Assembly (NCBI GenBank): GCA_965216465.1
Contig: CBDCFW010000006.1
Coordinates: forward strand, 1,184,001-1,248,000
Direction of reading: 5' to 3'
Length of the DNA: 64,000 bases
DNA from: Bacteroidia bacterium
Lineage (GTDB): Bacteria; Bacteroidota; Bacteroidia; NS11-12g; UBA9320
Shown: piece by piece, positions 1 through 64,000 of the stretch
Layout of the letters: every line of letters starts with the position of its first letter
Position numbering within the stretch: the stretch's first letter is position 1
Made by a program: the position numbers and the translations under genes
Notes under the pieces: generated by a model
Database searches by the model: none
Seen by the model: only the letters and a program-made list of their open reading frames with translations
Told to the model about the DNA's origin: nothing

Positions 1-1124
1 TCTGATTGTTCTTGGCTGAAACAAATACCACGTTATCATTCAACTTTGCCATCCACGTTTTTTTCAGCGTGGCAATATCATAAATCGCCTCATCTTCAAA
101 AATGTCTTCGTGAGTTGCCTCAGGATTGTATTGATCAATTTTGTTAAATACGGTAACGATTTTTTTGTCAGAAGCACCAATTTCCATTAAAGTTTGCGTC
201 ACCGTTTCCATTTGAGCTTCAAACTGGGGATGTGAAACATCCACCACATGCAATAAAATATCAGCCTCTATAACTTCATCTAAGGTAGACTTGAAACTTT
301 CTATCAATTGGTGAGGAAGCTTGCGGATAAATCCAACCGTATCCGAAAGCAAAAAAATCGTTGGAATTGGTTTTGTTTCGGTAGGAGGAAATACCACTTT
401 TCGAACAGTAGAATCTAAAGTCGCAAACAACTTGTCTTGTGCAAGCACGTCAGACTTTGCTAATAGATTCAAGATGGTCGATTTTCCAACATTAGTATAA
501 CCAACTAAGGCTACACGCTTTTGTGATTGCCTGCTTTTTCTTCTTGTAAACCCTTGATTGTCAATTTTTTTTTAGCTCATTCTTAAGCTTGGCGATTTTA
601 TCACGAATTACCCTTCGGTCAGTCTCAATCTCCTTCTCTCCTGGTCCCTTCATTCCAATACCCCCTTTTTGCTTTTGAAGGTGAGTCCACATCCGGGTCA
701 AGCGAGGAAGTAAGTACTCACTTTGTGCAAGTTCTACCTGGGTTTTGGCCTGTGCTGTTCGTGCGTTTTTAGCAAAAATGTCAAGAATTAAGCTGCTTCG
801 ATCTACAATTTTACAGTTAAACTCCTTCTCTAAGTTTCGAATTTGAGACGGACTAAGTTCATCATCGAATATAGCCAAGTCTATCTCGTAGGCTTTTATA
901 TATGCCCCTATTTCGTCAATCTTTCCTTTTCCTACATAGGTTTTCGGATTGGGATGATCTAAGCGTTGTGTAAAGCGTTTCAGCGTTTTGGCTCCAGCCG
1001 TGGTGGCTAGAAACTCCAACTCGTCTAAATATACTTTGCTGCTTTTTAACGGCACATTTTTTGGCTCTACACCAATTAAAATGGCCTGCTCTGTTTTCTT
1101 ACTATTTTGTACTTGAAATTCCAC
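1..1124 (-). CDS. hflX: GTPase HflX; runs off the left edge, with an apparent +1 frameshift in a 9-nt homopolymer at 565-573
   Basis: ORF 561-1124 has the HflX N-domain (ELSPSQIRNLE, AKTQVELAQ, GPGEKEIETDRR). Removing one base from the run continues into RVALVGYTNVGKS (G1), LFATLD (G2), DTVGF (G3), NKID (G4) and VFVSA (G5) up to position 1. Confidence 0.93.
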
Positions 1125-1171
1125 TAGAAGAAATTGTTCTTTAAATTCGTTCTTAGATTGTTAAAGTAATC

Positions 1172-2634
1172 GTGCAAAGGTACAACCTAAATATCCGAAT
1201 TCTACTTCTATTGGCATTTGTTGCCATAGCAAGTTTAGGGCAAAGCCAGGTTTTACAATGGAGTAACCCAACCAAGCTTAGAGGCACCGCCATCTTTACT
1301 AAAGTTGTGGGTGAAAATGAGCATGGGGTATTCATGATGCGGTACCGCAATCGATTTTATACCAAAAATGTAATCCTCGAAAAATACGATCATCACCTTT
1401 CATATCAACTAGGTAAATCTATTGAGCTTAAGAATGCACGTTTAATTAAAGTAAAGCTGATGAAAAATGGAGTTTTGATTATCAAATCTTCGTTTGGACG
1501 CAAAAACGAAACCAATCAACTTTATGCTCAGCTTTATAGTTTCGATTTCAAACCAATTAGTCGAGAGGTTTTGTTGGTTGAAACACCTGTTCGAACGTAT
1601 GGAGATAGAGGAAATTATCGCGTGCGAATTAGTGATAATCAAGAACATGTTGCAGTGGTATTTTCAAATCAAGACGAGCAAAAAAAACATCAACTTATTT
1701 CAAAACCTCTATACTGCCCGACCTTACTGTAGTGAGCAAAAGCGTCGCAAACATCCCTGTGCCTTTCGACAACTTTATCGTACAGGATTTTATGGTTACT
1801 AATGCAGGTCAAGTAAGCATATTAGGTAAGACAATTCAACGACAAAGAAGAAGAGTGTTGAACTCAACTGTAGGCTTATATCGTCTCTCTGATTCAACAT
1901 TTCAGCAGTATCTTCTTCCAGACTCTGTTGAAATTAAGCATTCAAAGCTGGTCTATGACCGAATGCAAGATCGAGTGAAAGTAGTTGGTTTTTATGGCGA
2001 TAAGGAGCATTATGGTATAGAAGGAACTGTGTTTTACTCGCTTGATAGTAACGATAAGCCCATAACGCTGTTCAATAAGTTTAGTGAGGATTTTATAAAG
2101 AAGGCAACTGTTAACGATCGTAACAATGGAGCCATGTCAGAAGGGTTTTCGTTAATTTCTATCGTACCCCGATCAGATGGGGGTGTTTTGTTGGTTGCCG
2201 AACAGAAAGAAATTGCTACCGAAGATGATATCATCATGGTTAATGGAATTCCTCAAAGTACCTCAAAAAACATCTACAACTTCAACGAAATTTTGGTGAT
2301 GAATTACGATCAAAATGGATTTATGGACTGGTTTGAGGTTATCACCAAAAATCAAACAACCATCAACGACGGTGGATATTTTAGTTCGGCAGTGGTTTAT
2401 GTAGGCGATAAATTTATCCAACTGTTCTATAACGACCAGCTCCGATCTTCTGGAGATGTTGTTCAGTACACAATCTATAACAACGGAAAAAGCGAAAGTG
2501 CCAATCTCTTAAAAGCCGACCTCGACTATGTAGCAATCATACCCGTAGAATCGAAGCAAGTTTCTTCGAATAAAGTTATTATTCCTACATCAAAAAACCG
2601 CAGATTTGCATTACTCAAAATAATCTACGATTGA
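1172..2634 (+). CDS. Exported hypothetical protein, probably one gene (beta-rich/propeller-like) split by frameshift(s) at about 1680-1720
   Basis: ORF 1172-1732 has a signal peptide. ORF 1732-2634 has none, and its frame is open from 1639. An 8-A run (1680-1687) and CCC (1717-1719) lie at the junction. Confidence 0.7.
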
Positions 2635-3533
2635 TCCAATATCTAACACGAAATATTGCCACAGCCATTGCCGTATCAGCCGTACTTTTTTTGAGCTACA
2701 TGGCGATATTGGGAGATTATTCAACTCAATCCTTAATTAAATTTGGCTTACTGCTTTCACAAGGATTAATACTGAACTATTTGTGCTTTCGTTTCGGAGT
2801 ACTCGGGCAGAACTCAAGCCTGCCGTTGGTCTTGTTTAGCATATTGTCCGTTCTAATTGCACCCCTTTTGTCGTTGGGTGATTTGGTGTATGGAGTTATA
2901 TGGCTGGCTGCATTTTTCTTTGCGTTTGAAAGCGGTGAAAACCCACATAAATCTAGAAATTACATTATTTATTTTGGTGTTCTTTTGGGCGTTGCTCAAA
3001 CCATTAATAACATAAGTGTATTGCTCCTTATTCCGGTGTTTATGCTTTTTATTCAAACAGGTGCGAGGAGTTTGCGTGATTTCGTTTTGAGCATCTCCTA
3101 TTTTGTAATGGTCGTGATGAGTTTTGTGGGCGTGCTCTATGTTATGGAGCTTCAAGATAAGCTCTTTCAGCTCATTCCACAGCTAACTTTCGACTACTCT
3201 ACATTTAATAATATTATGATTAAATTGTTGCTACCATTTGTGTTTGCAAGTTTAGTTGTACATTATTTGAAGCTGAATGGATACAAATTTCGCTATCCAA
3301 ATCAAACAAAGATTCTGAACTATACCATGCTTATTCAGCTGGCCATAGCTGTAGCCTTAATATTGTTAACTGCAGATGCAAATTTCTTAATCTACTTTGT
3401 TATGCCAGTAGTAGTAGTGTTAAGTTTCATGTTCTTGTATACCAGCAAGAGCATCTTCTCTAACGCGGCATTTTTAAGTTTGATTTGTATCGCTCTTGCT
3501 TCACTCTGGATGTATAAAATATTAATTTTGTGA
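2631..3533 (+). CDS. Polytopic membrane protein (DUF6427-like)
   Basis: About 9-10 hydrophobic segments; start overlaps the upstream stop. Confidence 0.7.
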   Translation: MIQYLTRNIATAIAVSAVLFLSYMAILGDYSTQSLIKFGLLLSQGLILNYLCFRFGVLGQNSSLPLVLFSILSVLIAPLLSLGDLVYGVIWLAAFFFAFESGENPHKSRNYIIYFGVLLGVAQTINNISVLLLIPVFMLFIQTGARSLRDFVLSISYFVMVVMSFVGVLYVMELQDKLFQLIPQLTFDYSTFNNIMIKLLLPFVFASLVVHYLKLNGYKFRYPNQTKILNYTMLIQLAIAVALILLTADANFLIYFVMPVVVVLSFMFLYTSKSIFSNAAFLSLICIALASLWMYKILIL

Positions 3534-3579
3534 GGCTTGCATTATTCGTTTTCTTTGCATAGCACAAATTGTAAGATTT

Positions 3580-4143
3580 ATGAACGAGGATATTAAATTG
3601 GTTTTAGAAGAACTTAAAGTTCAATTGGAGAAGAGTCTAGCACACGTGGTTTCTGAAGTTGGGAAGTTAAGAGCTGGTAAGGCTATGCCTGCAATGCTTG
3701 ATTCTGTACAAGTTGAATACTATGGGAGCAAGGTTCCGCTATCTCAAGTAGCCAATGTTAATACTCCTGATGCTAAAACCCTAATGGTAAAACCATGGGA
3801 AAAAACCATGCTTGAAGAAATCGAACGTGGAATTATGTATGCGAACCTCGGACTAAATCCTCAGAACGATGGCGAACAAGTAATTATCAATGTTCCACCG
3901 CTTACAGAAGAAAGAAGAATGCAACTTGTTAAGCAAGCTAAAGGTGAAGCAGAACATGGTAAAATTGGTTTGCGAAGTGCTCGTAAGGATGCCATCGATA
4001 CCATTAAAATGCTTCATAAAGATGGTTTAAGCGAAGACCTTGCAAAAGATGCGGAAGGCGACGTTCAAAAGTTGGTTGATGAATATGGGAAGAAAATTGA
4101 TCAAGCCATTGCTCAGAAAGAATCTGAGATTATGACCATTTAA
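3580..4143 (+). CDS. frr: Ribosome recycling factor
   Basis: LRAGKA, VEYYGS..PLSQVANV, PPLTEERR, KESEIM motifs. Confidence 0.97.
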   Translation: MNEDIKLVLEELKVQLEKSLAHVVSEVGKLRAGKAMPAMLDSVQVEYYGSKVPLSQVANVNTPDAKTLMVKPWEKTMLEEIERGIMYANLGLNPQNDGEQVIINVPPLTEERRMQLVKQAKGEAEHGKIGLRSARKDAIDTIKMLHKDGLSEDLAKDAEGDVQKLVDEYGKKIDQAIAQKESEIMTI

Positions 4144-60426: not shown

Positions 60427-60546
60427 ATGAAATTTGTTGAGCTTAATTATTTTTAATTCTTTTCGACAAAACTACCTAATAGTTAAGTGAATTATGATAA
60501 AATTATGGGAATTGCATGAGGTCGTTATTCTATATTTGCACCCAAA

Positions 60547-60858
60547 ATGAAACGGTGGATGGCCATAGGTGCAATTTTGTTATTCTCCTTTGCGGGAATA
60601 CAGACGCTGTTTCATGGTGTAGAGTTTCATGAAGACGATTGTGAATCAACAGCAGAACATTATTGTGCTCCTGAATTTCACCATCACTGTGAACTCTGCG
60701 ACCTCTTTACGGGATTTGCCATAGTAAATGCCAAAGCGCAGTGGATTCCTTCAGATTTTATAGGAATTGTATTTGAGGATCTGCAACACCAAGAACCAAT
60801 TGCTTTATGGACTTATCCCCCTCAAGGAAGAGCTCCTCCGTTAAAACTGCATTCATAA
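60547..60858 (+). CDS. His/CxxC-rich small protein with RAPP motif (DUF2946/CruR-like uORF)
   Basis: N-terminal hydrophobic segment, HGVEFHEDDC..H.C...HHHCELC, C-terminal GRAPP; ATG 8 nt after TATATTTG. Confidence 0.8.
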   Translation: MKRWMAIGAILLFSFAGIQTLFHGVEFHEDDCESTAEHYCAPEFHHHCELCDLFTGFAIVNAKAQWIPSDFIGIVFEDLQHQEPIALWTYPPQGRAPPLKLHS

Positions 60859-60894
60859 TATCCCTAAGTTTTAACAAAAAATCAAATCAATTTA

Positions 60895-63156
60895 ATGAGA
60901 AAAATGATGACTATGCTCATGATTATGGGCGTAGCATGGAGTGCATCGTCACAAGTAAATGTTAGTGGCGTTGTGCTTGAAAAAGAGTTAGGAATTCCGA
61001 TAGCTTATGCTGTTGTGAAACTAGGAGATCGTACGGCACTTACCAACGATAATGGCCGCTTTATGTTCAAAAATTGCGAAGTAGGTGATCTGTACTTTAA
61101 GCTCTCCTATTTAAGTTCAATAGCCTCTTTTAAACACCATGTTTTTAGTGATACCAGCTTGATGTTCTATTTTCATGTAGACCACAATGAAATCACCCAA
61201 ATTGTGGTGCGAGGCCATGAGCACGATAGCAATGAGTTTGCAGGCATTAAGTACGAGATAAGCCGAGATAAGATAGAAATGCGCGCAGCTACCTTGCTTA
61301 GTGATGCCTTGTATGATGTTAATGGAATACGCTTCCTAAAAACAGGAAACTCAATTGCCAAACCTATTATAAATGGTATGCACAGCAATCGCGTAGCTAT
61401 AGTAAATTCAGACAGCAGACAAGAAGGTCAACAATGGGGGAGTGAACACGCCCCTGAAGTTGATCCATTCAGTGCGGGCTCTGTTGAAGTGATAAAAGGA
61501 GCATCAACGTTATTGTACGGCAGCGATGCAACCGGCGGTATTATAAAACTAACACCATTGCCTTTTGCTGATTCAACCTATCGTCAGTTTCAATTGCATA
61601 CTCGATTTGCATCTAACCCTTTAGGAGGTTTGTTTGGTGGACAATGGGAGAAATTTAACAGGCAAAAGCATTTGGGGCAACGTTTGTCAATCAATGTTCA
61701 GAAGAATAGTGATGCCTCCGCTCCAAATTATGTTTTAAGCAATACCGGTTTTGACCAGCTAAGTGGAAGTTATTACATAACCAAACATATGGCTTCACAT
61801 CAATTCTCATTAAATCTTACTTCGTTTCAACAACAGCTGGGTATTTTGGCCGGAGCCCATATTGGAAATCTCACTGATTTGAAAAGGGCTTTAGCAAGTG
61901 ACACACCTACCATAGTAAATCCACGAACTTTTGAAATAGGCTTGCCATTTCAAAAGATTAATCACCACGCGGCAAAGCTGATGTGGGAATCGGTAGAAAC
62001 AGCTATGGGAGATGTAACGATGAGTTTAACTCATCAAGTCAATCATCGTGAAGAGTTTGATCGACATGGAACGGAAGATAAAGCCGCTCTTGACCTATTG
62101 CTGAATACAACTCAAGTTAATGCTTTAGTTGATAAGCATTTTGAAGAATGGAGAATTGAATACGGAGCAATGGGAGAACGCCAAACCAATATTTACAAAG
62201 GGCGTTACTTTATTCCGAATTACCTACGTCATAAATACGGGGTGTTTTCTGTGGCAACATTGAAGAAGCATCGTTATTTGTTGGAAGCGGGATTGCGGTT
62301 CGACGATCATTGGAACAGTACGTATAGAAACAACCGAAATGAGGTAGTGAATGATAAATTTCGTTTTTATGGCATTTCATCAGGATTAAGTGCATGGTAT
62401 AGGGTTAACACTACATCTCGTATTCAAATGTCAATCTCTTCTAAGTTTCGAGCTCCTGACATTAATGAGTTGTTTAGTGATGGACTTCATCACGGTACGG
62501 CCAATATCGAAATAGGAGACCTGAGTCTTACAACAGAGCGTAGTAATTCGTTGATCGCTGCGTATGAATTTAAGCACGAACGAATAGCAATCAATGTTGA
62601 ACCTTACGTTCATTACTTCAAGAATTATATCAATCTAGAACCAACTGGAGAAACGCAGTTAACCATTCGTGGAGCATTTCCTGTGTTTCGATACATTCAA
62701 ACCGATGTTATGTACAGTGGTGCAGATGCACAAATTCAGTTTGTGGCCAACGATCATTGGAGCATACGCACTGGAGGTAATTTGGTGTACGTACGAGACT
62801 TAGATGAGGATCGATTCATTTATGGAATTCCTGCACCGCAATTGAACGGAGGTGTAACCTACCGATTTTTTGATTTTGCATCTTTTGAGCACGGGAGCTT
62901 TAAGCTCAGACCCGAATACGTTTTTCAACAGAACTGGGTAGACGCAACCAATGATTTTGCCCCTATACCACAAGCTTATTTCTTGCTAAATGCGGAGATG
63001 ACCTTGCAATTTAAGTCGAGCCCATTGCGTGTGCTTTTGGGTGTAGACAATCTATTAAACAATTCCTACAGAGACTATTTAAACCGATACCGATACTTCG
63101 CCGATGAGCGAGGAATTCAGTTTAACATTACAATTAATTACAAAATAAGAAAATGA
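60895..63156 (+). CDS. TonB-dependent receptor, likely for a transition metal
   Basis: CarboxypepD-like N-domain, plug (KPIING, QQWGSEHAPE, EVIKG..LLYG), ELFSDGLHHG, YLNRYRYF. Confidence 0.92.
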   Translation: MRKMMTMLMIMGVAWSASSQVNVSGVVLEKELGIPIAYAVVKLGDRTALTNDNGRFMFKNCEVGDLYFKLSYLSSIASFKHHVFSDTSLMFYFHVDHNEITQIVVRGHEHDSNEFAGIKYEISRDKIEMRAATLLSDALYDVNGIRFLKTGNSIAKPIINGMHSNRVAIVNSDSRQEGQQWGSEHAPEVDPFSAGSVEVIKGASTLLYGSDATGGIIKLTPLPFADSTYRQFQLHTRFASNPLGGLFGGQWEKFNRQKHLGQRLSINVQKNSDASAPNYVLSNTGFDQLSGSYYITKHMASHQFSLNLTSFQQQLGILAGAHIGNLTDLKRALASDTPTIVNPRTFEIGLPFQKINHHAAKLMWESVETAMGDVTMSLTHQVNHREEFDRHGTEDKAALDLLLNTTQVNALVDKHFEEWRIEYGAMGERQTNIYKGRYFIPNYLRHKYGVFSVATLKKHRYLLEAGLRFDDHWNSTYRNNRNEVVNDKFRFYGISSGLSAWYRVNTTSRIQMSISSKFRAPDINELFSDGLHHGTANIEIGDLSLTTERSNSLIAAYEFKHERIAINVEPYVHYFKNYINLEPTGETQLTIRGAFPVFRYIQTDVMYSGADAQIQFVANDHWSIRTGGNLVYVRDLDEDRFIYGIPAPQLNGGVTYRFFDFASFEHGSFKLRPEYVFQQNWVDATNDFAPIPQAYFLLNAEMTLQFKSSPLRVLLGVDNLLNNSYRDYLNRYRYFADERGIQFNITINYKIRK

Positions 63157-63704
63157 ACAAATCACAATTTATAAAGGCTTTAGGCCTAGTAGCAGTTTTA
63201 AGTTTAACCTTTACCGCTTGTAAAGAAGAAGTTGAAGATCCGCATGATCACAATGAAGAAGAATTAATAACTTCGGTTGAGCTGAGCTTTACAGAAGACA
63301 GCACAACTAACACCGTTGAATTTAAGTTTGCTGACCCAGATGGAGATGGAGGAAATGCTCCTACTCAACACGATACGATTCAATTGAAGGCGAACACAAC
63401 GTATAACCTTTCACTGAAGTTTTTAAATGAATCTGACCATGTTCATGACATTACAGGAGAAGTTGAAGAGGAAGCAGATGAGCATTTAGTGTGTTTTGAT
63501 GTTACTGGATCTACAACTGTTACCATAAATGACATGGATGGAAACAACCTTCCTTTAGGACTTGAGTCAACCGTTACAACTGGAGACTCGGAATCAGGAA
63601 GTTTTACTGTATCGCTTAAGCACCAGCCTGATGTTAAAAACGGAAGCTGTGACGTTGGTGAAACAGACGTTGAAGTTGCCTTCGTATTGCAGGTGGTTGA
63701 CTAA
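63153..63704 (+). CDS. His-rich lipoprotein partner of the TonB-dependent receptor
   Basis: Lipobox FTAC; HDHNEEELIT, DPDGDGG, EEEADEH, LKHQP, GETDV. Confidence 0.82.
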   Translation: MNKSQFIKALGLVAVLSLTFTACKEEVEDPHDHNEEELITSVELSFTEDSTTNTVEFKFADPDGDGGNAPTQHDTIQLKANTTYNLSLKFLNESDHVHDITGEVEEEADEHLVCFDVTGSTTVTINDMDGNNLPLGLESTVTTGDSESGSFTVSLKHQPDVKNGSCDVGETDVEVAFVLQVVD

Positions 63705-63786: not shown

Positions 63787-64000
63787 ATGTCGAACCCCAA
63801 TAACGCCGATTCGCTTAGGAAAGAATTAGAGGAACTTGCTCGATTTCCTGAAATGAATCCGGGGCCGGTTCTTCGCCTCGATAGACAAGCCAATGTTATT
63901 TTGGCTAATTCTGCTGCCCGCAAAATTTTTAATCACGAATCACTCATTGGAAAAAGTTGGTTAGACCTTTGTCCAGGACTAAACCAAGAAGAGTGGAATG
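63787..64000 (+). CDS. PAS-domain signalling protein (partial, runs off the right edge)
   Basis: Not in the ORF track. Reads MSNPNNADSLRKELEELARFPEMNPGPVLRLDRQANVILANSAARKIF...; NP.PV.R.D....AN.AA is PAS-like. Confidence 0.75.
   Translation, partial: MSNPNNADSLRKELEELARFPEMNPGPVLRLDRQANVILANSAARKIFNHESLIGKSWLDLCPGLNQEEWN

Follow-up and report, generated by a model that had tools for sequence, protein, structure and literature searches.

A Candidate Metal-Sensing Arrest-Peptide Leader of the CruR/CutF Type Upstream of a ZnuD-like TonB-Dependent Receptor in Bacteroidota

Introduction

Metal-sensing arrest peptides are a recently recognised route by which extracytoplasmic metal is read through a nascent chain. 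In Bordetella pertussis, CruR (Bp2923; DUF2946, PF11162) is described as encoded upstream of the TonB-dependent transporter BfrG/CrtA (PMC9426467; PMC12914433), and the 45 residues between its CxxC and RAPP motifs are reported to be functionally critical (PMC9426467). Here we analyse a 64,000-nucleotide stretch of a Bacteroidia bacterium genome (the window; positions 1,184,001 to 1,248,000 of contig CBDCFW010000006.1, assembly GCA_965216465.1), in which a 103-codon open reading frame (ORF) precedes genes for a TonB-dependent receptor and a lipoprotein. This ORF is probably a cis-acting, metal-sensing arrest-peptide leader of the CruR/CutF type (DUF2946-like), in which the stalled ribosome would melt a hairpin and so control the downstream receptor.

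Elements of this kind are already known. A published survey of 5,334 CutF-like proteins places 19% of them in Bacteroidota and gives TonB-like proteins as their second most frequent neighbours (Ozturk et al. 2023, PMC9973294), and RAPP/RGPP leaders before TonB-dependent receptors are reported throughout Gram-negative bacteria (PMC12992588). In light of these two reports, a preliminary description of the locus, made from its sequence, had overstated its novelty. The second of them also describes RAPP and RGPP as more prone to cause translational arrest than other RAPP-like sequences and as under-represented in bacterial proteomes; the phyla analysed there include Bacteroidota (n = 1000) (PMC12992588). 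The supplement text of the CruR study (PMC9426467; its Table S1 lies outside that text) contains no mention of words beginning with Bacteroid, Flavobact or Cytophag, nor of Proteobacteria. Our literature search found no bench study of such leaders in Bacteroidota. To our knowledge, bench work on metal-sensing arrest peptides is limited to two, CruR of Bordetella and CutF of Rhodobacter, both proteobacterial.

Beyond what we found in print, the locus and its relatives display an exact 43-residue ruler, a near-leaderless and mostly non-AUG start, a position-specific hairpin that leaves the start site unmasked, and a receptor with ligands of the ZnuD type. It is a compact Bacteroidota example for comparative work, in which a leader of ~100 codons, containing the 43-residue ruler, is followed by a 36-nt spacer and its one hairpin, the operon having three genes in all. 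It lets one ask how a stall is turned into expression when no Shine-Dalgarno sequence is available for masking, and it suggests that environmental Bacteroidota may have a zinc-uptake module, made up of a ZnuD-like receptor and a surface lipoprotein.

Results

Leader ORF and Its Conservation

The leader ORF occupies positions 60547-60858 of the window (103 codons and a TAA stop); this and all other features described below lie on the forward strand. The preliminary description had reported an ORF of this length 8 nt after a TATATTTG box, with a His/Cys cluster, GRAPP near its end and an N-terminal export or membrane segment, and the first three of these are all present in the sequence. Codons 1-22 (60547-60612) encode a K/R n-region and a putative hydrophobic export signal or N-in membrane anchor: K2-R3 is followed by a hydrophobic stretch, and a K/R-rich start with ~15-17 hydrophobic residues is kept across the alignment described below, export being judged by eye. 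Codons 23-52 (60613-60702) form a putative sensor cluster comprising H23, H28, C32, H38, C40, H45-H46-H47 and C48-E-L-C51, and codons 53-94 (60703-60828) a spacer. The predicted arrest site, RAPP, is encoded by AGA GCT CCT CCG (60829-60840), where, on the CruR model, the P site would hold P97 and the A site P98; after G94-R95-A96-P97-P98, five codons and the TAA close the ORF.

R[AG]PP occurs among the last 14 residues of only 2 of the 24,491 stop-to-stop frames (40-260 aa) in the complete 3.23-Mb genome, one of these frames being the leader. Since the motif is so rare near C termini and the ORF recurs in same-genus genomes, its occurrence here goes beyond chance. Among 60 related genomes searched in six frames, the 27 of the same genus yielded the leader ORF in 22 cases at E <= 1e-3 and in 24 at E <= 1, and relatives also appeared in two further genera of the family.

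We aligned 28 sequences (alignment A1: that from the window plus sequences from 19 loci and 8 database representatives), whose members are 24-32% identical to the window peptide. Nine positions were invariant in all 28, namely H23, H38, C40, H45, C48, C51, R95, P97 and P98, and D52 was nearly so. Despite ~30% overall identity, every invariant residue is a His, a Cys or part of R..PP, and the CxxC motif (C48-x-x-C51) is unbroken throughout. Loss of RAPP in homologues had been named as grounds for doubting the leader; instead, R95, P97 and P98 are universal, position 96 is Ala in 25 sequences (RAPP) and Gly in 3 (RGPP), and the tail after the motif measures 2-5 residues. The C51-R95 spacer is exactly 43 residues long in 28/28 and has no conserved column, and such a combination of constant length and free sequence would be expected of a nascent-chain ruler, not of a folded domain.

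The subfamily is concentrated in one genus and sparse outside it: its profile matched only 7 of 401 genomes of the phylum at E <= 1e-3, the window's genome included. A word-indexed protein search with the single leader gave no match beyond the window's own protein. An exhaustive search of representatives returned 12 matches at E <= 1e-3, two of which (proteins of 561 and 1,172 aa) were set aside, as their alignments covered only 24-30 query residues. The profile search yielded 8 clusters only, none with a Pfam label.

Relationship to the DUF2946 Family

The Pfam profile DUF2946 (PF11162) matched leader residues 42-98, from CxxC to RAPP, over profile positions 58-117 (E 0.012), with a sub-threshold score of 16.8 bits. 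A six-frame search of the window's own genome with this profile did not recover the leader locus at E <= 10. PF11162 was run against 301 Bacteroidota genomes; at E <= 0.01 it matched in 22, and 4 of these exceeded the cut-off. Of the 12 loci fetched, 9 carry His-rich CxxC...R[AG]PP ORFs with spacers of 43-47 residues. These nine Bacteroidota ORFs, at or near the Pfam cut-off (4/9 reach it), made up a second alignment, A2. Comparison of A1 with A2 by hhalign gave a probability of 97.7% (E 1.6e-12, 101 columns), a score that in part reflects shared composition and motifs.

Based on this comparison, we treat the leader as a divergent member of the CruR/CutF-like (DUF2946) family. RAPP or RGPP stands a few residues from the C terminus in 28/28 members, the CxxC-RAPP spacing of 43 residues in 28/28 is near that of CruR, and the leader is the first gene of an operon with a TonB-dependent receptor; the Pfam score is the feature that does not conform. 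The earlier proposal of a Bacteroidota CruR/DUF2946-type leader is thus supported by the invariant CxxC/R[AG]PP, the constant spacing, the profile comparison and the operon, all of them sequence features; the direct DUF2946 match stays below threshold, and the profile-profile comparison agrees with the family.

Promoter and Start Codon

The TATATTTG box (60531-60538) has the sequence of a Bacteroidota -7 promoter element, and 8 nt (cacccaaa) separate it from the leader ATG at 60547. The corresponding pattern, TAnnTT[TC]G, was present in 20/20 homologues, with the end of the box 3-8 nt 5' of the start codon. In Flavobacterium johnsoniae, the G of the -7 box is reported to lie at -5 relative to the transcription start (PMC6847099); if the same holds here, the mRNA leaders of the homologues would measure ~0-4 nt, and the predicted transcription start of the window (~60543-60544) would leave a leader of 3-4 nt.

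At the aligned start position, the 20 homologues have TTG (14), CTG (2), GTG (1) or ATG (3). The window leader itself is recorded in the protein collection as a 99-aa form starting at M5 (60559 instead of 60547). Non-ATG starts and the sub-threshold Pfam score probably explain why the family is almost unannotated, and the locus shows how leaders get missed when they open with TTG, CTG or GTG at the extreme 5' end of the mRNA.

Genome-wide, ATG codons opening frames of >=150 codons peak 4-8 nt after TAnnTTTG (51, 38, 26, 38 and 31 cases), with <=5 at 0-3 nt; the 4-8 nt interval accounts for 184 of the 572 found within 30 nt. GTG also peaks, at 4-5 nt after the box. Leaderless or near-leaderless mRNAs seem far commoner in this genome than reported for two Flavobacterium species: leaderless mRNAs amount to 5.5% in Flavobacterium psychrophilum (PMC9723704), and in F. 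johnsoniae 13% of leaders are given as 10 nt or less (PMC6847099).

In one lineage (L008, L009, L011 and L015), a GTTC-N6-GAAC inverted repeat abuts the promoter, ~4-18 nt upstream of the -7 box; it was not seen in the window. This repeat could be the operator of an additional transcriptional, perhaps metal-responsive, regulator.

Operon Organization

The leader stop is followed by an A-rich intergenic spacer of 36 nt (60859-60894) without an internal -7 box, then by the gene of a 753-aa TonB-dependent receptor (60895-63156), whose stop overlaps the start of a 183-aa lipoprotein-like protein (63153-63704) in an ATGA. We compared ~6 kb of context at each of 12 loci and the promoter regions of 19 loci. 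The order leader-receptor-lipoprotein, which had been put forward as a synteny check, is kept in 11/12 loci. In all 19 loci the receptor start codon has no -7 box within 100 nt, and in 4/19 a box occurs 100-339 nt upstream of that codon, inside the leader ORF. The window's flanking genes (AraC, GNAT, a 155-aa protein, a histidine kinase and a response regulator) recur in 0/12 loci and were dropped as parts of the system. With gene order kept, flanks not recurring and no box near the receptor start, the three genes are read as a cassette driven from the leader promoter, as judged from these comparisons.

Two of the 11 loci have the receptor gene divided over two overlapping frames (L039, 1044-3309; L045, 3558-5815), a sign either of a frameshift or pseudogene or of faulty assembly. 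A locus from another genus of the family (L044 in G033, 540-4054) has a leader homologue followed by an extra 300-aa ORF and then a more distant TonB receptor (27% identity); a lipoprotein homologue was not found there.

Downstream of the cassette (window 63787-64000, continued in L034 787-4129, that is, G000:C6 1247787-1251129) lie a PAS histidine kinase and a 554-aa fusion, which are not conserved neighbours. The fusion is unusual in joining a response-regulator receiver, a glutaredoxin and a pyridine-nucleotide-disulphide oxidoreductase.

Hairpin at the Predicted Stall Site

Folding predicts a hairpin of 9 bp with an 18-nt loop at 60840-60875, in which GTTAAAACT (60840-60848) pairs with AGTTTTAAC (60867-60875). 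The 5' arm starts with the final nucleotide of the P98 codon, and the leader stop codon sits in the loop. In the toeprint reported for CruR, the P site holds the third RAPP codon and the A site the fourth (PMC12992588); with the same placement here, the entire 5' arm would lie under a ribosome stalled at RAPP.

Intergenic spacers are 32-61 nt long and A/T-rich in 15 of the 19 loci. For these 15, we compared 55-nt windows starting at the last Pro codon with dinucleotide shuffles and with offset controls. The RAPP position gave a mean z of -3.52, with z < -2 in 11/15, as against 1, 2, 1 and 1 of 15 at four upstream offsets and 4, 5, 1 and 2 of 15 at four downstream ones. The hairpin of the window has a z of -7.4. 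The stems differ, with at least 8 distinct arm sequences, and L011, L009 and L015 show a G-C, G-U, A-U series. Frame-anchored positions +3, +4 and +8 after the two prolines are paired in 15/15 loci, by 4, 4 and 2 pair types respectively, and the stop codon falls within the stem in 12/15. MAFFT with RNAalifold on the 15 post-RAPP segments returned 0 consensus pairs, which speaks against a simple hairpin reading and arises because the arms are too divergent to align by sequence.

C-rich, G-poor runs (CCCT, CCCC or CTCC) are frequent in the loops of the post-RAPP hairpins (window 60849-60866, and L002, L003, L004, L006, L012, L018 and L019). No partner sequence was found for these runs, which could be contacts for Rho or another protein. 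Separately, a small hairpin, GCGAAnnnnnTTCGC, immediately follows the receptor ATG in most homologues (L002-L018, within the first 16 nt of the receptor ORF) and is absent from the window (60895-60911). It may reflect the conserved MRK.FA peptide or may weaken independent initiation.

Receptor, Lipoprotein and Candidate Metal

The receptor ATG at 60895 lies 36 nt after the leader stop. The protein has Plug and TonB beta-barrel domains and contains EHAPE and LHHG, in agreement with the preliminary description. Its nearest solved structure is ZnuD (E 2e-16), followed by the haem receptor ShuA (1.6e-6). Over two aligned segments, E184-H185 pairs with a ZnuD Asp-His at chain positions 113-114 and H532 with H513; a hand-counted numbering offset of 14 turns these into Asp-99, His-100 and His-499. 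The high-affinity zinc site of ZnuD is described as Asp-99 and His-100 together with Glu-340 and His-499 (PMC4557270), so that three of its four ligands align with receptor residues E184, H185 and H532. Among 11 orthologues, H185, H532 and H533 are invariant and E184 is kept in 10, with Asp in the eleventh; no conserved Cys or Met was found in this set.

Since the receptor retains three of four ZnuD zinc ligands, zinc is our leading guess for the sensed metal, offered tentatively; copper is a possible second, and nickel, cobalt and haem share what remains. The earlier suggestion had been zinc, nickel or cobalt rather than copper, of which the preference for zinc over copper gains some support from the ZnuD-like ligands. 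Two points tell against zinc. The fourth ligand, E340, lies outside the aligned segments, and the pair of aligned His would suit a haem-type receptor as well: the haem-receptor model TIGR01785 (122.5 bits, cut-off 316.85) scores as well as the NCBIfam ZnuD model NF038289 (115.2 bits, cut-off 950), both far below their cut-offs. A FRAP box is present (KFRAPD); at the site of what we take to be the haem-receptor NPNL box, the receptor reads GDLSL. With regard to copper, a PepSY_TM gene is reported to come next in >75% of CrtA/BfrG loci (PMC12914433), and the third gene of the window encodes a lipoprotein that belongs to no Pfam family.

This 183-aa protein matched no Pfam or NCBIfam family, and its matches in the Atlas are unnamed Bacteroidota clusters only, placing it in an uncharacterised Bacteroidota family. 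An acidic stretch follows the lipid Cys and presumably resembles the Bacteroidota surface-export signal. The HDHNEEE motif of the preliminary description is present in the window; its HDH part is not kept, being replaced by PPN-type sequence in 11/11 orthologues. Invariant residues are mostly acidic, together with H111, H157, C114 and C166. The AlphaFold model (pLDDT 73) is an Ig-like beta-sandwich, and Foldseek found no PDB match for it at E <= 1e-3; what it did return were generic Ig-like sandwiches.

Discussion

The mechanism we favour would run as follows. Transcription of the operon would start 3-4 nt before the leader start codon, and the N-terminal signal or anchor would target the nascent peptide to the Sec translocon, bringing the His3Cys3 cluster (H23, H38, C40, H45, C48, C51) to the periplasmic side. 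In the apo state, the chain would stall the ribosome at R95-A96-P97-P98, with the cluster 43 residues upstream, just outside the ribosome-translocon conduit. The stalled ribosome would melt the hairpin and keep the spacer before the receptor open, and receptor and lipoprotein would be made. Binding of metal (zinc favoured, copper next) would compact the cluster, and the resulting pull on the chain would free the arrest; the ribosome would then terminate 2-5 codons later, the hairpin would re-form, and downstream expression would fall.

Several observations weigh against this mechanism. The PF11162 score of the leader is below the gathering threshold of 23.7 bits, and only 5/28 subfamily members match that profile at E <= 1 (best 0.012). 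The start codon is TTG, CTG or GTG in 17/20 homologues, from which poor initiation would be expected on an almost leaderless mRNA. The window hairpin is A/U-rich and weak (-7.3 kcal/mol), four homologues with long spacers (105-362 nt) have none, and only 4/15 more distant Bacteroidota relatives reach z < -2. Finally, the 3' arm ends 10-50 nt before the receptor ATG (19 nt in the window), leaving the start region unmasked, and an imposed stall shifts the opening energy of positions -18..+12 by >= 2 kcal/mol in only 4/19 loci (-0.88 in the window). On this computation, we rejected the hairpin as a mask of the receptor start region. As predicted by folding, the hairpin is real and stall-sensitive and is not an initiation-site mask of the CutF type; it could lower expression by occluding a standby region, by assisting Rho or otherwise.

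Bacteroidota largely lack Shine-Dalgarno initiation. A more specific version of the favoured mechanism, which we regard as possible and put forward with reserve, would make the leader a zinc-finger-like force sensor: the His3Cys3 cluster would fold around Zn(II) outside the translocon and pull the ribosome from its arrest, controlling a ZnuD-type zinc piracy receptor and a surface lipoprotein from a near-leaderless, mostly TTG-started mRNA, with the stall-melted hairpin acting on an upstream standby region and not on a ribosome-binding site. If true, this output would be a mode of coupling not described for CruR (Rho) or CutF (masking of the ribosome-binding site).

The same sensor and stall could instead act through Rho-dependent termination, an output that we consider tentative as well. 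The stalled ribosome would shield the RNA; after release, the untranslated spacer and early receptor RNA would be open to Rho, and the hairpin would be an auxiliary pause or loading element. CruR is reported to operate in this way (PMC9426467), a Rho gene is present in the genome (624 bits, above the cut-off), and the unmasked start region, the four long-spacer homologues without a hairpin and the C-rich, G-poor loop runs would all fit. However, the A/T-rich spacers of most loci are short for a Rho loading site, and the strict placement of the hairpin at the stall site is the classic design of a stall-melted switch.

An inverse logic, in which metal induces or prolongs the stall, appears unlikely. 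Here most receptor translation would come from ribosomes that complete the leader and initiate again 32-61 nt downstream, so that stalling would switch uptake off. Copper binding is reported to induce stalling of Rhodobacter CutF (PMC9973294; bioRxiv 10.1101/2025.02.05.636593), the spacers are short, a near-leaderless mRNA may favour 70S-type initiation and scanning, and the GCGAAnnnnnTTCGC hairpin at the first receptor codons of most homologues could weaken independent initiation. Yet the stall-melted hairpin would then have no role, re-initiation over such distances is not documented for Bacteroidota, and CruR, the closest analogue with a TonB receptor, uses the opposite logic. That the ORF is a stable exported metal-binding protein (a chaperone or metallophore precursor serving the receptor, with RAPP as a structural C-terminal motif) is very improbable: an exported His/Cys-rich peptide beside a receptor could carry its ligand, and ribosomal peptide metallophores exist (to judge from a title in the reference list of PMC12914433), but a 43-residue stretch conserved in length without a conserved residue is unexpected for a folded domain, the operon has no modifying enzyme, and R..PP is invariant 2-5 residues before the stop although RAPP/RGPP are described as generally avoided in proteomes (PMC12992588).

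Set beside known systems, the favoured arrest-peptide mechanism combines features that are described separately. The receptor is closest to ZnuD of Neisseria meningitidis (PDB 4RDR; PMC4557270), with three of four zinc ligands aligned. It differs from ZnuD in its Bacteroidota-type N-terminal CarboxypepD_reg-like domain. ZnuD is Zur-regulated, and we know of no leader peptide for it.

SecM, ApdA and ApdP, as described (PMC12992588; bioRxiv 10.1101/2025.02.05.636593; PMC10987492), share with the leader an arrest motif of the RAGP/RAPP type near the C terminus and an N-terminal localisation signal (putative in the leader); in them, a pulling force releases the arrest and the next gene is regulated, both of which are predicted for the window. 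They monitor Sec or YidC activity and precede sec or yidC genes, whereas the conserved His/Cys cluster and the metal-type receptor suggest metal as the releasing cue for the window leader.

The likeness to CutF of the Rhodobacter capsulatus cutFOG operon (PMC9973294; bioRxiv 10.1101/2025.02.05.636593) lies in a nascent chain that senses metal once exported and acts in cis (both predicted for the window), in a proline stall motif at the C terminus, and in a stem-loop immediately 3' of the leader that a stalled ribosome would unfold; the CutF survey itself includes Bacteroidota members and TonB-like neighbours. In contrast to the window leader, CutF has CxxxC and controls a multicopper oxidase for detoxification, induced by copper. 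Its stem-loop shields the ribosome-binding site, whereas the window has no Shine-Dalgarno sequence and its hairpin stops short of the ATG.

CruR is longer than the window leader (145 residues versus 103), belongs to the Pfam family whose threshold the window leader does not reach, and has a CxxC and one semi-conserved Cys in place of the His3Cys3 cluster. Its operon couples a 162-nt spacer to Rho termination, compared with 36 nt and a stall-site hairpin here, and has a PepSY_TM protein where the window has a lipoprotein. The window receptor is ZnuD/haem-like and, to judge from the published description of CrtA, not CrtA-like, and the window host initiates without Shine-Dalgarno sequences, on a near-leaderless mRNA. 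What the two have in common is the CxxC-RAPP spacing (45 residues in CruR, 43 here), a place as first gene in an operon with a TonB-dependent receptor and, by analogy, the expected logic, in which uptake would be turned off when metal is plentiful.

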